Counted from the first letter of the stretch, positions 50,088-62,617 are shown. The stretch: DNA of 64,000 bases from Escherichia coli (GCF_003334305.1 NZ_QOWS01000018.1), one strand, 5' to 3'. The notes: a model not told the origin generated them from the letters alone. Numbers and translations: made by a program.

Positions 50088-50693
50088 TTAGCCGTTAAGT
50101 TTAACTGCCAGACCTGCGACATATTCCCCTTGATAACGAGCAATAGACAGTTCTTCCTGGCTTGGCTGGCGTGAGCCGTCACCGCCTGCGATGGTTGTTG
50201 CGCCGTACGGCGTACCGCCGCGAACCTGTGAAACGTCAAATAATTCCTGCGCTGCGTAGCCAATGGGGACAATTACCATGCCGTGATGCGCAAGGGTCGT
50301 CCAGGTTGAAGTAATAGTTTGTTCCTGACCGCCGCCAGTACCGGTGGAACTAAAGACGCTCGCCAGTTTTCCGTATAGTGCGCCGGAAGCCCACAGGCCG
50401 CCCGTCTGGTCGAGGAAGGTACGCATTTGACCGGACATGTTGCCAAAGCGGGTAGGTGTACCAAAAATAATGGCGTCGTAATCGGCCAGTTCTTGCGGGG
50501 TTGCAACCGGTGCAGTTTGCGTTTTACCGCCTGCTTTTTCAAATAATTGCGGCGGCATGGTTTCCGGTACACGCTTAACGACAACTTCTGCGCCATCCAC
50601 TTTGCTTGCACCCTCAGCGACTGCGCGTGCCATCGTTTCAATATGTCCGTACATGGAATAATAAAGCACTAGTATTCTTGCCTTAACACTCAT
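50088..50693 (-). CDS. wrbA: NAD(P)H:quinone oxidoreductase WrbA with element-derived N-terminus (201 aa; MSVKARI replaces K-12 MAKV)
   Basis: Track ORF 50088..50693; identical to remembered WrbA from [21 protein letters not shown] onward; first 7 codons, RBS and promoter lie in inserted DNA. Confidence 0.9.
50663..50669. other. Left junction (attL) overlap sequence AAAGCAC
   Basis: Point where wrbA sequence changes from K-12-like to foreign; same heptamer at right junction. Confidence 0.6.
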
Positions 50694-50744
50694 ATCATTG
50701 TTCTCCTGTTCAATGAACCACTTAGATAAGCATAGTCCGAAGAT

Positions 50745-52388
50745 ATGAAGCTGCTAGTGACATACATCAGGTGGAGTACTAAAGAGCAAGACTCAGGAGA
50801 CTCCTTAAGACGACAAACAAACCTCATTGATGCTTTCTACTCTAAGCACAAAAACGATTATTACCTTCTTCCTGCTCACAGATACGTTGATAAGGGTAAA
50901 TCTGGTTTTCACCAGCAACATAAGAATCAAGGTTCTGACTTCAGACGTATGTTTGAAAATGTTATGTCTGGGGCTATTCCAGAAGGTTCCCTGATTGTTG
51001 TAGAGAACTTTGACCGCTTCAGTAGGGCTGATATCGACACAGCTATAGATGATGTCAGGCAGATACTGAGGAAGGGAGTCTCTATACTGACTCTGGGAGA
51101 TGGTGAACTCTACGACAAGTCAGCATTAACAGACCCTGTGAAGCTGATTAAGCACATCATCATAGCTGAGCGAGCACATCAGGAATCTCTTGTTAAACAA
51201 AAGCGTATAGCTCAGGTCTGGAACCATAAAACACAGCTTGCAAGAGAACTTAAGAAGCCTATGGGTAAGCAAGCCCCCGGATGGTTAGAGCTATCAGAAG
51301 ACGGTTCACACTACATCGTTGATGAAGATAAAGCGTCACTGGTGAATATCATCTATGACAAGCGTCTTTCTGGTATGTCGATGTTTGCTATCTGCAAATG
51401 GCTAAACGAACAAGGTTACCCGACCATTAATCAGCGTAAGGTCAGAATATCCAAGACTAAGAAACCGGATGGTAACTGGTCAGCTTTAAGCGTTAAACAC
51501 ATCCTGACTTCACGAAGTGTATTAGGTTACCTTCCCGCTAAGATTTCTACAGAAGACCGTAAAACAGTGTTACGTGAAGAAATTGAAGGGTTCTATCCTC
51601 AGATTGTCACAGATTCTAAGTTTTACGCTGTACAGCAACTGTTAGAGGAAACAGGGAAGGGGAAAACATCCAGCGGTGACCACTGGTTATACGTGAACAT
51701 ACTGAAGGGGCTTATCCGTTGTAAGTGTGGGCTTGTAATGACTCCTACAGGGATACGTAAACCCGTTTATCAAGGTACTTACCGTTGCAATGGTAATAAG
51801 GAGTCCCGTTGTAGCTACGGTACAGTGTCCAGAAAGTTACTTGATACACAGCTTTGTAGTCGTCTGTTTAGCAAACTGTCACAGCTACACGATGAAGCTA
51901 CCGATACAGCTAAATTAGATGAACTACAAAGAAGATTAAACACCGTTGATGGTGAACTGGAAAAACTCACTGAGACGCTGATACAGCTTCCTAACATCAC
52001 TCAGATTCAAGAAGCACTACGGGTTAAACAGGAAGAAAAAGATGAACTGATAGTTCAGTTATCACGAGAAAAGGCGAGGGTAAAATCTGTATCAAGCTTG
52101 GATTTAAGCGGTCTTGATATGGAGTCTGTAGAGGGGAGAACTGAAGCCCAGATTATCATTAAGCGTCTGGTGAAAGAGATTGTTGTTTCTGGTAATGAAA
52201 AGCTGGTGGATATATATCTTCACAATGGAAATATGATTCGTGGTTTCCCTCTTGATGGTAAAGATGACCACACCTTAACGCTTGAAGAAGCAACCGATGA
52301 GATGCAGTCACTAGATGATATGCTTATTTTTGGTGAACCAGTAACAAGGATTTATCCTGCTGGTGATATGGAAGAGGTGGACGCTTAG
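50745..52388 (+). CDS. Large serine recombinase (integrase), 547 aa
   Basis: N-terminal resolvase catalytic motif YIRWSTKEQ, central recombinase region, Cys-rich zinc-ribbon (CKCGLV...CNGNKESRC) and coiled coil; lies next to the junction. Confidence 0.85.
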
Positions 52389-53173
52389 TATTTTTTATTA
52401 GGGTTCACTGAGTACTTTTTAAGCTTTGAAGCTACTCGACCAGCGTTACTATTAGCATTGGTGACGTTGGTTTTTTCAGCTTCTGTTAAGTCTGAATAGT
52501 CCAGCTTCCAAGCCTTATTACACTTAATCTGAGCATCGAGAATATCATTTCTGATAGCTGGAGCGTAACCGGATACATCGCTAATACTCATTAGCTCTTT
52601 GCACGATAGCATAGGCGCGTTATTGCGTTCAGTGGTCACGTTACCTGCATTCTTCTTACTGGTCACACCACCATCATTCGTAGTCGCGGCTTTTCCAGTT
52701 GCAGCCGAGATATCAGTCTGCCCCACAACAGCTTTGAAGTTAATTTCCTGAAAAGTTAGTTGGATTCTTAATCCGTTTGAAATTCCAACATCTTTAGAGG
52801 CTTTAAAACTTGTGATAATGGAATCATCAATTTTAATTCCGTCTTTACAGATGACAGAAATAATCTGCTTCTGGTCACGCCAGTTTTCCAGAGTGTCAAT
52901 GAAGTTCTCTACTAATTGACCCTGACGAGTTAATAGTAAGCTTCCTTCATAACCAACTACAACGACACCACTGATAGTGATTGTTCTGGGTGCTCTTTGA
53001 ACATTATCTGTGACGGTTTGCCCTGATTGCATGTTCTGTGTAGTCACCTGCATAGGGCTATCAAATTCCATATTTTCAGTTGCTGATAAGGTTAAGAAGG
53101 CATCTACATTATCTCTTAAGTGGAAGTAAACGCCATCTTTGCCACTGTAGCGGATTTGATTGCTAAAAATCAT
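52385..53173 (-). CDS. Hypothetical protein (262 aa), downstream of the tape-measure-like gene; own copy of a shared promoter cassette
   Basis: Track ORF 52385..53194 (TTG); I prefer ATG at 53173 preceded by AAAGGAG; no recognizable motif; position would suit a distal tail protein but unproven. Confidence 0.6.
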
Positions 53174-53253
53174 TAAATTCTCCTTTGATTTCAAAGGCTT
53201 AGTGTATTTTAATCATTTTTAACCAAGCCTTTGATATATAAGTATTTTCTCTG

Positions 53254-53322
53254 TTAAGCGTGAGCTACGTAAATTCTATTTTTCAGTGCGGGTATTAACT
53301 TTGCTTTATTCACGTAGAACAC
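53254..53322 (-). promoter_or_regulatory. Promoter/5'-UTR cassette copy 1 (about 70 bp, repeated at 55517-55585)
   Basis: 34-bp identical core TAAGCGTGAGCTACGTAAATTCTATTTTTCAGTG plus flanks; contains inverted CTACGTAAA/TTCACGTAG. Confidence 0.55.
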
Positions 53323-53329
53323 CGTTAAA

Positions 53330-61176: not shown

Positions 61177-61337
61177 CTGTACAGACACCTTAACGGTTTC
61201 TCTACACCTCACTATGGCTAGGTAGGGTATGGTTTAGCTTGGTACGGCTAGGTTAGGTCTGGTTTGGTTAGGTATGGGTGGATTGTCGTAGCCACGTTAA
61301 AAATCGACTTATAGGGACTCTTTCGGGAGTCCTTTTT
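61177..61337 (+). ncRNA. Candidate small RNA (about 160 nt) with tandem G/T-rich repeats
   Basis: Promoter TTGATG-16-TATAAT at 61143-61170; repeats at 61216-61281; terminator GGACTC-TTTCGG-GAGTCC-TTTTT at 61314-61337; no ORF. Confidence 0.35.
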
Positions 61338-61541
61338 AGTTTGTATAAAATCTGTACAGGAGTTATCAGGCTTCTAAAATTTTTATAAAAAATAATCAGA
61401 CCTCTTCTAAGCCTCTTCAACCAAATCTTTCGAAAATATCTGACAGATGTCTGTAGCTGCTAAGTACCCGTCACACCAGCTATGTGACCCCCTTGGCAAA
61501 AAAGCCAAATATCAGCTACATCCATGTAACTATTCAGTAAC

Positions 61542-62093
61542 TTATTTAGCAAGTCTGTAATAAGTTGCTCTAGAGATTCCTAACTCTTCCTGAATCTGCA
61601 ACCTCGTCTTACCTTGTGAAATAAGCGTCTGTACAGCCTCTGAAGAAGCCTTTACAGGCCTCCCCATATGTACCCCTTCAGCTTTAGCACGTTCAATACC
61701 AGCCTTTCTACGCTCTGCTATCAAGCTTCTTTCAAGCTGTGCCAACGTTGACATAATGCCTAACATTGCTTCACCCATAGCGCTTGATAAGTCAAACCCT
61801 TCTCTAAGGCTGATAACTGTCACACCTTTAGCCTGTAGCGCTTTAACCGTTGATAACACATCAATTGTGTCACGTCCAAGACGGTCTACAGCTACCACAA
61901 CTACGGTGTCACCTTCTCGTGCATAAGCTAACAAACTACTGAAACCGTTTCTTAAAGAAGCTTTGACAGAACCACTGACAGCTTCATCAGTGAACCATTT
62001 AGCAATGTTGTACCCTGCCTCTTCAATTTGCATTTGCTGGTTAGTGATGGATTGGTCATCTGTACTCACCCTGCAATATCCAAGTATCGCCAT
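61542..62093 (-). CDS. Small serine recombinase of the resolvase/invertase family (183 aa)
   Basis: MAILGYCRVSTDDQ catalytic motif, C-terminal HTH; GGGGGA RBS. Confidence 0.85.
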   Translation of the reverse strand: MAILGYCRVSTDDQSITNQQMQIEEAGYNIAKWFTDEAVSGSVKASLRNGFSSLLAYAREGDTVVVVAVDRLGRDTIDVLSTVKALQAKGVTVISLREGFDLSSAMGEAMLGIMSTLAQLERSLIAERRKAGIERAKAEGVHMGRPVKASSEAVQTLISQGKTRLQIQEELGISRATYYRLAK

Positions 62094-62108
62094 ACATCCC
62101 CCTTAGAA

Positions 62109-62230
62109 GTCTCAAAAGTTAGTCTCATAAGTTTAGCTGTCTCATAATCCAAAAACAACCTTTTGAGACTACTTGAGGGTGCATTCTACCGTTACGTTGA
62201 AAGTGTCTCAAAAGGAAGTCCTTTTAAGAC
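62109..62230. promoter_or_regulatory. res-like recombination site: six GTCTCA(A/T)AAG half-sites in direct and inverted pairs
   Basis: Half-sites at 62109, 62122, 62139 (forward), 62161 (reverse), 62195 (forward), 62221 (reverse); fit TGTCYNNTA-type resolvase sites. Confidence 0.55.
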
Positions 62231-62610
62231 TGGTTATGAAGGAGCTATGAAGATTTTAGGAGGGTAACTATAACCATCACTTTCTAACTTTCACGTAGGA
62301 AATCGTTAAGTTTCTTGATAGTTACACCATGTGACCAACTATCTATATATCGTTATATAGCCCTGTATATAACACTTTTCTAGGAGTCGAGAGAGGGACG
62401 ACTAACACGATACAGTTTACCCTGAAAAGAGACTTCACAGATTCTCTATATATTTCAATAAGTTAGGCTAAAAAGAGACTATACCGATACTGTATAGAAT
62501 CTGTGTAGAATTGCTTAGATACTTGGAAAAATGCCTTTAAATTGAATAGGTACTAACCTGTTTATGTCCTGTTATTAACAGGTAGTTGAATGTACGTGTT
62601 TAGCTATGTA

Positions 62611-62617
62611 AAAGCAC
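62611..62617. other. Right junction (attR) overlap AAAGCAC, followed by displaced native wrbA start and promoter
   Basis: Reverse complement of 62611-62634 is ATGGCTAAAGTTCTGGTGCTTT, the K-12 wrbA 5' end. Confidence 0.6.

Follow-up and report, generated by a model that had tools for sequence, protein, structure and literature searches.

What kind of element interrupts wrbA in Escherichia coli (GCF_003334305.1, NZ_QOWS01000018.1)? We address this question for a foreign island, referred to as the A7 copy, within a stretch of 64,000 nucleotides (nt) that we call the window and to which all positions refer. A preliminary description, made from the sequence alone, had proposed a site-specific integrative element with a resolvase/res module at its far end that is too small for a prophage and unlike an ICE (integrative and conjugative element) or a transposon, and our analysis supports this proposal. 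Among the three identities that had been offered, we favor the still unproven phage satellite, leave a new type of island open and reject a decayed prophage. More specifically, we suggest that the island is a phage-parasitic satellite of, or a hitcher on, the Felix O1-like myoviruses (Ounavirinae), which are strictly virulent phages, and that it is similar to the PLE, elements that resemble phage-inducible chromosomal islands; we consider the chances that this reading is correct to be about even.

Precise insertion into wrbA

The island comprises 11,948 bp (50670-62617) and lies in codon 7 of wrbA (50088-50693, minus strand), the first seven codons of which are foreign DNA that replaces the MAKVLVLYYS start. 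The native start of wrbA, ATGGCTAAAGTTCTGGTGCTTT, is displaced to 62613-62634 (minus strand) beside ymdF. The junction sequences thus confirm, far beyond chance, the initial claim that wrbA is broken at its 5' end and that its native start lies 11.9 kb away. wrbA retains an open reading frame because an AGGAG ribosome-binding site is brought in by the island together with an ATG and the first seven codons. The heptamer AAAGCAC is present at both junctions (50663-50669 and 62611-62617). In the empty-site alignment that had been called for, the flanks fused at this heptamer gave a 703-nt empty site that is found unbroken and with 100% identity in many E. coli genomes, and the fused sequence is covered to at least 80% in 5,129 of 5,426 complete E. 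coli genomes, the collection used throughout. As described initially, the interior is AT-rich, with a G+C content of 40.2% compared with 51% in the rest of the window and 38.8% in the phage.

In strain DCE7, a near-identical island with a 99% identical recombinase protein lies between yegR and yegS, and its junctions are ...GTACTGAC/TAGTATT... and ...GTAAAAGCAC/AATCTACC..., with the slash marking the point of joining. AC is the only sequence common to the wrbA attachment site (attB), the yegR/yegS attB and the attP of the island. Because the 99% identical recombinase used a site that shares only AC, this dinucleotide is probably the functional crossover, its 2 bp being what large serine recombinases are expected to use. 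At wrbA, the longer AAAGCAC would accordingly reflect similarity between attP and attB rather than the core; its presence at both junctions had been noted correctly, and its role as a core overstated. Altogether, the insertion is precise, with a 2-bp crossover, no target duplication, and an attB and an attP that can both be reconstructed. The island integrated by means of its large serine recombinase inside wrbA, and the gene was rebuilt. Prophages are known to use wrbA as an attachment site. Some strains whose attB is empty, among them STEC276 and A30, have IS1 inserted beside wrbA; mobile DNA in general targets this locus.

Gene families were searched using PHROGs, NCBIfam, Pfam (precomputed), PADLOC (5,027 defense models) and PDB sequences. 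Both recombinases that had been recognized at the outset, i.e., the 547-aa (amino acid) large serine recombinase and the 183-aa resolvase, have the expected Pfam domains (Table 1). Inspection of the larger protein places the catalytic Ser in YIRWSTKEQ and locates a Cys-rich zinc-ribbon-like stretch and a coiled coil. The res-like site that had been proposed beside the resolvase is supported by a cluster of half-sites, as five of the nine GTCTCAAAAG matches in the whole window fall in 62109-62230. This module is found without a transposase, terminal inverted repeats or a duplication, and the island therefore differs from the Tn3 family. DCE7 carries, in place of the 183-aa resolvase and in the opposite orientation, a small recombinase that is 34% identical to it. 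We considered a Hin-like switch and rejected it because the A7 and DCE7 genes are only 34% identical and, therefore, represent different cargo and not an inversion.

A tail gene pair links the island to Felix O1-like phages

The tape-measure-like protein noticed initially has a TMP_3 match; what had been missed is that this protein and its neighbor correspond to the gp17/gp18 pair of Felixounavirus. The tube initiator matches PDB 9ndy_A (gp18 of the Felixounavirus Bas63) with an E value of 2e-114, and the tape measure matches 9ndy_F (Bas63 gp17) with an E value of 2e-70. The homologs of gp17 and gp18 in phage H12 are adjacent and in the same order as on the island, and the two proteins are the only ones of the island with a homolog in H12. 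At the nucleotide level, the island matches the 50,697 phage records only through 519 nt of the tube-initiator gene, a stretch that is 93-95% identical to Felixounavirus and 94.8% identical to H12. Separately, one phage record outside the top matches listed matched part of 55499-62617 with at least 99% identity.

The similarity is unevenly distributed along both proteins. Residues ~17-185 of the tube initiator are 97-100% identical to H12, and the C-terminal extension (residues 186-269) is 30-48% identical. The same holds across 19 family alleles: identity to the phage is 76-96% in the tube domain and always 30-48% in the extension, of which there are several types. The tape measure is ~32% identical to that of the phage overall, with 58% identity in the N-terminal 40 aa and ~60% in the core (residues 281-360), and it retains the C-terminal motif LLSSS(F/Y)PE (LLSSSFPEDD in the A7 copy). 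In Bas63, gp18 has a tube-like domain and a ~100-aa C-terminal extension that spans the baseplate, and the last 25 residues of gp17 touch the hub (PMC12609058). We read this pattern as suggesting that the interfaces of the tail proteins have either persisted or been renewed again and again through recombination with present-day phages, and that the baseplate anchor has been replaced. Phage-like interfaces together with a replaced anchor argue for selection on the interaction with phage tails and against a passively carried fragment.

In every family member examined, a 69-nt element lies directly upstream of each tail gene; its 10-bp stem is imperfect, and its 3' part of 33 nt is conserved. The element could be a family-specific regulatory site, e.g., an activator or processing site. 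As a late promoter of the helper it was rejected, as there is no trace of it in H12.

A conserved island family

All family loci examined, of which 12 were tabulated, have the same gene order, with alleles that are 25-99% identical: a large serine recombinase, the tube initiator, the tape measure and approximately eight small conserved genes. The tail pair is present in every member examined; the Dam methylase, the resolvase and some of the non-coding blocks are optional. We found the module of tape measure and tube initiator in 470 of the complete genomes, at up to six places per genome, and never on plasmids; island ends of the type made by this recombinase are present in 180 genomes. Because up to six places were found per genome, members with different recombinases may coexist in one cell. 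In the A7 chromosome (NZ_CP028767.1), the query for the module is matched at three places. The index of the collection has the identical recombinase protein in 258 blocks, and the eight places listed are all at wrbA with mosaic cargo, so that the survey proposed in the preliminary description for this recombinase with variable cargo at wrbA gave a positive result among the places listed. Other family members are at yecE or yegS, some with recombinases of 34-35% identity. In DCE7 (L003 1-3000), the family member adjoins P2-like prophage genes (cox, integrase) at yegR, and in a metagenome contig (L040 1-1500), a member lies beside a prophage module for tail-fiber assembly and an invertase.

Two of the small genes were followed further. 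Homologs of the 236-aa protein form 3,091 clusters and those of the 184-aa protein 1,095 clusters, and the hosts are E. coli, E. albertii, E. fergusonii, Shigella and Salmonella. The host range of the family proteins is that of the Felix O1-like phages. Sister islands that share the recombinase have, in the slot of the 184-aa protein, a replication initiator of 319-325 aa (O-like/DnaD-like, E ~1e-11). Because the sisters hold an initiator in the same position, the location of the 184-aa slot suggests that it is a replication module. The preliminary description had recognized no capsid, terminase, conjugation or replication-initiator genes; we likewise detected none of them in the A7 copy, and the initiator in the sister islands had been missed.

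The island family excises as a circle

Using a 26-nt attP probe, in which the right end of the island is joined to its left end, we matched three metagenome contigs. One of them, L019 (ERZ506742), has a length of 11,233 bp, encodes a recombinase with 99.5% identity and contains a complete family member with an exact terminal overlap of 55 nt, and is therefore a circle of 11,178 bp. In another, ERZ1744498 NODE_469, the order is flank-element-attP-element-attR with the wrbA flank, and the two copies do not differ over 9,925 nt, so that a single sample contains reads of both attP and attR. Moreover, in a subfamily with a 506-aa recombinase, contig L037 (11,141 bp, 126-nt overlap) forms a closed circle of 11.0 kb, its tube-initiator open reading frame (ORF) runs continuously across the contig ends, and its junction leaves the sequence of an integrated relative exactly after ...CAATGACCCTTGA. 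The attP junction was found in none of the 5,426 complete genomes, making chromosomal tandem arrays an unlikely source. We conclude that the island family can leave the chromosome as a circle of ~11 kb. We detected no attP in the viral contigs of IMG/VR. An 11.5-kb contig, P0240, was considered as a further circle and proved to be an ordinary chromosomal fragment.

Non-coding DNA similar to phage DNA

The preliminary description had pointed to ~2 kb of repeat-rich DNA free of ORFs. We confirm that DNA of this kind is non-coding; however, it amounts to ~3.0 kb in several blocks, it contains one conserved small plus-strand gene (59151-59363), and its similarity to phage non-coding DNA had escaped notice. 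When compared with the terminal region of H12, i.e., the 2 kb without ORFs across the ends of its record, the ORF-poor DNA of the island gave 48 high-scoring segment pairs (HSPs) with 1,199 bits and a best score of 54; 20 other H12 segments of equal length gave 4-15 HSPs, at most 322 bits and best scores of at most 31. The best blocks pair 60744-60850 with H12 255-355, 61340-61513 with H12 530-704, and 59902-59981 with H12 87343-87417. In addition, a 68-nt near-palindrome (59717-59784) is 91% identical to positions 242-307 of phage NBEco005. In the first kilobase of H12, the motif [CT]TAACA[AG] is found 24 times, compared with approximately once per kilobase elsewhere, and within the island it is mildly clustered at 60.7-61.1 kb of the window. 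The ends of Felixounavirus records have an ORF-free region of ~1.6 kb that is packed with this motif and lies between convergently transcribed gene blocks. Direct terminal repeats have been reported for Felixounavirus genomes (PMC11737134), which makes it plausible that the terminal region of H12 functions in packaging or replication.

A further element combines a promoter-like site, a phased (GGNNN)n array, a nested hairpin and an intrinsic terminator (Table 1). At 61220-61308, it shares 75-79% identity with an intergenic element that Felixounavirus, Suspvirus and Mooglevirus genomes have near their DNA ligase gene. Ounavirinae genomes have three promoter-proximal copies of the array with its hairpin in this early region. 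The array occurs three times in H12, each time co-oriented with the early genes, once in the window, and in six of the 17 family loci scanned; in phage garuso, one copy is annotated simply as "repeat_region". Compensatory changes support the nested hairpin: 98.4% of the cells are paired compared with 84% in shuffles, none of the 500 shuffles reached as high a value, and slid controls were at most 53% paired. A candidate RNA at 61177-61342 was dropped, as its fold is barely more stable than that of shuffles (z -1.65), and Rfam gave no known RNA family in 50000-63000. The element is a candidate for a transcription-primed origin or a phage-responsive RNA on the island, and in the Ounavirinae it may be a replication origin or a regulatory RNA.

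A proposed satellite and its alternatives

The island has no full set of virion genes, yet has a specific link to Felixounavirus through the tape measure and the tube initiator, which conforms to the general notion of a satellite. That the island replicates once excised is suggested by the repeats and the resolvase/res module, together with the initiator slot and the circles seen at assembly level. We speculate that infection by a Felixounavirus would supply or trigger an excision factor. The circle would then be amplified from the replication slot (the 184-aa protein and the repeats in the A7 copy, the O-like initiator in the sisters) and/or by the phage replisome, with the phage-like promoter-(GGNNN)n-hairpin element as its starting point; the resolvase/res module would keep the circles monomeric. 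DNA similar to the phage terminus may let the packaging machinery of the helper take up the island. The island tape measure and the chimeric tube initiator would enter the helper hub, with the tube domain phage-identical to fit and the baseplate-anchoring extension changed, and the outcome could be poisoned helper tails or tails reserved for island-carrying particles. Finally, the HNH nuclease may act on helper DNA, and the orphan Dam methylase may protect the DNA of the island. We put forward only tentatively, and with more doubt than confidence, the stronger claim that this family would be the first in Enterobacteria to consist of satellites of strictly virulent phages. The islands would stay in the chromosome until a Felix O1-like phage infects, then excise and amplify, replicate or be packaged by means of DNA that mimics the cis-acting sequences of the phage, and add their own tape measure and tube initiator to the tail built by the helper.

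Several observations weigh against a satellite. There is no direct evidence of encapsidation, and no phage record in GenBank contains the island. No capsid-size, terminase or packaging protein was recognized, no excision factor was identified, and the A7 copy is without a recognizable replication initiator. The island measures 12 kb, ~1/7 of what the helper genome does, and its packaging would therefore call for small capsids or for concatemers; there is evidence for neither. The virome origin of the circular contigs could not be established, and circular assemblies could arise from spontaneous excision unrelated to phage. The similarity of the non-coding DNA is patchy (63-91% over 30-180 nt). 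The (GGNNN)n element and the resolvase are accessory and missing from several relatives, and the 69-nt element upstream of the tail genes is missing from the phage.

An alternative is an anti-phage defense island that is not transduced. Its tail genes would encode dominant-negative decoys that poison Felix O1-like tails in the manner of Tai systems, phage DNA would be the target of the HNH nuclease, the methylase would label self DNA, and the recombinase would provide only for occasional horizontal movement. A phage-identical tube domain fused to a divergent baseplate-anchoring extension fits an assembly poison based on the structure (PMC12609058), interference with tail assembly is an established defense strategy on mobile elements (PMC11364771), and PHROGs, NCBIfam and Pfam gave no packaging or capsid genes. 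However, PADLOC matched only "orphan methyltransferase", plus marginal hits (E ~0.007), and pure defense would need no phage-terminus-like DNA, replication slot, multimer-resolution module or circles abundant in assemblies. Moreover, the two readings overlap because known satellites also interfere with their helpers. We consider pure defense rather unlikely, although it is the main rival. The circles, the initiator slot and the resolvase/res module, which is typical of plasmids, could also be explained by a self-replicating, plasmid-like integrative element that acquired its phage genes and non-coding DNA by chance recombination, has no functional relation to the phage and is transferred by another route, e.g., mobilization or transformation. 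Against this, the tail pair is present in every member examined, and the tube domain stays 76-96% phage-identical as the rest of the gene diverges, supporting selection for compatibility. In addition, neither a plasmid nor a separate replicon carries the element in the complete genomes, and no relaxase, oriT or partition genes were detected in PHROGs, NCBIfam and Pfam. We therefore regard a plasmid-like element as improbable.

The same three collections gave no type IV secretion or coupling protein, so the island does not qualify as an ICE or an integrative and mobilizable element (IME), and no capsid, portal, terminase, lysis or repressor genes or remnants of these. The island could nevertheless be thought of as the remnant of a decayed tailed prophage that used wrbA as its attachment site, given the role of wrbA in prophage attachment and the presence of two tail genes and a phage-type methylase. 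However, in all loci examined, which occupy three or more attachment sites and have different recombinases, the genes are intact and their order and content conserved; the tail genes derive from the Ounavirinae, which are strictly virulent; the A7 copy has only intact ORFs and neither pseudogenes nor insertion sequence (IS) scars; and the excised circles have the same size as the integrated island. The conserved intact family, the several attachment sites and the virulent-phage tail genes effectively exclude a decayed prophage, to which we assign next to no probability.

Other genes and features

The recombinase gene is on the plus strand, and the other recognized protein genes are on the minus strand except for the small gene at 59151-59363. 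The HNH nuclease and the Dam-like methyltransferase of the preliminary description hold up, with matches to HNH_3 and PF05869, respectively, and the helix-turn-helix (HTH) fusion described for the latter would correspond to a C-terminal tail that is HTH-like. The AlphaFold2 (AF2) model of the 236-aa protein has a long coiled coil and a small alpha/beta insert (mean confidence score pLDDT 76), and that of the 184-aa protein has a helical core at residues 67-160 (pLDDT 65). Searches of Pfam, PDB sequences and PADLOC with these two proteins gave nothing meaningful. In RefSeq, the Prokaryotic Genome Annotation Pipeline (PGAP) names the 236-aa protein "transposase" in thousands of genomes without support from Pfam, PHROG or NCBIfam; based on its sequence and model, this name is likely a propagated misannotation. 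The 71-aa and 236-aa proteins were considered as tail assembly chaperones, and profile comparison with phage chaperones was negative. The 93-aa protein resembles a small DNA-binding protein, its only match being weak and DndE-like. A second stretch of low G+C content (32-38%), unrelated to the island, lies at 46500-48500 of the window, upstream of agp and around yccE.

Table 1. Features of the island and of corresponding phage regions (window positions unless a phage is named)
Feature	Position	Strand	Remarks
attL core AAAGCAC	50663..50669		Crossover AC probably at 50668-50669
Island-supplied start near the ribosome-binding site and first codons MSVKARI	50670..50693	-	Restores the wrbA frame
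Large serine recombinase, 547 aa	50745..52388	+	PF00239 and PF07508; phrog_95 integrase, E 5e-78
Tail tube initiator, 262-269 aa	52385..53194	-	Dit_like PF21821; PGAP start 53173; homolog of Bas63 gp18
69-nt element, copy a	53254..53322	-	Imperfect hairpin and ...CTGAAAAATAGAATTTACGTAGCTCACGCTTAA; immediately upstream of the tube-initiator gene
Tape measure, 722 aa	53330..55498	-	TMP_3 (PF20155, TIGR02675); homolog of Bas63 gp17
69-nt element, copy b	55517..55585	-	Upstream of the tape measure gene
Conserved 71-aa protein	55700..55915	-	No family match
Conserved 236-aa protein	55939..56649	-	No family match; two allelic types ~27% identical
28-nt inverted repeat	56677..56768		Between a promoter-like site (57037-57009, minus) and the 236-aa gene
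Conserved 107-118-aa protein	57128..57484	-	No family match
HNH_3 endonuclease (predicted), 95 aa	57607..57894	-	
Two small conserved proteins, 71 aa and 93 aa	57891..58387	-	No family match
Conserved 184-aa helical protein	58389..58943	-	First gene of the leftward operon
Back-to-back sigma-70-like promoters	58994..59059		Minus, 59022-58994, TTGACA-17-TAGTAT; plus, 59030-59059, TTAACA-18-TATAAT
Conserved small hydrophobic protein, 58-70 aa	59151..59363	+	Divergent from the 184-aa operon across the promoter-like sites
Two 76-nt direct repeats, 95 nt apart	59484..59654		Candidate iterons or regulatory repeats
Patches like the right end of the Felixounavirus genome (H12 87333-87417) and 68-nt near-palindrome	59673..59981		
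Dam-family N6-adenine methyltransferase, C-terminal HTH-like tail	59972..60640	-	PF05869; accessory, missing in some relatives
Non-coding block with homology to Felixounavirus DNA (left terminal ORF-free region)	60722..60898		H12 255-355 and 450-499; rich in [CT]TAACA[AG]
Promoter-(GGNNN)n-hairpin element	61143..61342	+	Promoter-like site 61143-61170; phased (GGNNN)n array 61211-61290; nested hairpin 61266-61309; intrinsic terminator 61313-61334
Block like H12 530-704	61340..61513		63.5% over 181 nt
Small serine recombinase, resolvase/invertase type, 183 aa	61542..62093	-	PF00239 and HTH_7; accessory
Res-like cluster, five half-sites	62109..62230		GTCTCAAAAG, direct and inverted; directly upstream of the resolvase
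attR core AAAGCAC	62611..62617		Overlaps the displaced native wrbA start (62613-62634, minus)
ORF-free ends of Felixounavirus	H12 (L006) 1-1180, L018 42172-42639; NBEco005 (L005) 1500-2807		
(GGNNN)n and hairpin copies in phages	H12 43.9, 44.1 and 45.3 kb; phage loci L004 2880-3090 and 4261-4345		

Novelty and significance

We found no description of the island family in the full-text literature, outside which most subscription journals lie, so that a prior description is possible; the family is apparently undescribed. In RefSeq, its genes go by "phage baseplate protein" and "tape measure protein" and also, erroneously, by "transposase". Felix O1-like phages serve in typing, biocontrol and therapy of Salmonella and E. 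coli. If our reading is true, an island that targets or exploits these phages in ~1/11 of E. coli would be an unrecognized determinant of host range and treatment failure, and ~9% of E. coli would carry a natural determinant of resistance to Felixounavirus. A satellite that contributes inner tail parts and not capsid-remodeling factors would represent a new hijacking logic. Satellites of virulent phages are well known only from Vibrio (PLE and the phage-inducible chromosomal minimalist islands, PICMI); an enterobacterial counterpart in a tractable host, with helpers in the BASEL collection and a solved helper structure, would make tail hijacking testable. Moreover, the recombinases specific for wrbA, yecE and yegS, with their defined attP and attB, are candidates for genome engineering, and the phage-like (GGNNN)n element may point to the replication origins of the Ounavirinae.

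Comparison with known systems

Plasmids carrying origins of phage T4 replicate only in infected cells. The transcription-primed (R-loop) origins oriF and oriG of T4 share with the (GGNNN)n element a promoter, a G-rich tract in the non-template strand and a structured element; the phages have a few copies, located among early and replication genes, and the island has one. The likeness is an analogy only, and the function as an origin is a candidate one in phage and island alike. For the Tai systems, the proposed effect is the same, i.e., interference with phage tail assembly from a mobile element; however, Tai proteins are small non-structural inhibitors, whereas the candidates on the island are full-length structural homologs in which no Tai homology was seen.

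Among satellites, the PLE of Vibrio cholerae, which parasitizes the virulent myovirus ICP1, is architecturally closest. It is likewise a small island with a large serine recombinase and a virulent myovirus partner, and, similar to the island, it has a nuclease and a replication module, is without a capsid or terminase of its own, and shows evident sequence exchange with the phage. The PLE differs in its size of ~18 kb and is not known to carry a tape measure or tube initiator; the likeness is architectural. Excision, replication, packaging and interference have been shown experimentally for the PLE, whereas we infer packaging, helper dependence and interference for the island. PICMI of virulent Vibrio phages, phage-inducible chromosomal islands (PICI), capsid-forming PICI (cf-PICI) and P4-like satellites of Enterobacteria are similar to the island in size class (~6-15 kb), a chromosomal attachment site, a proposed helper and a mosaic accessory region. 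They differ by their tyrosine integrases and hallmark genes (AlpA, Pri-Rep, Sid/Psu/Delta, capsid or packaging); PHROG, NCBIfam and Pfam searches gave none of the PICI, P4-like or cf-PICI hallmarks in the island, the integrase of which is a serine recombinase. In contrast to these four groups, which carry no inner tail proteins of a helper, the island does so, and its pair consists of direct homologs of Bas63 gp17 and gp18, adjacent and in the same order, that sit on a chromosome without any other virion gene.

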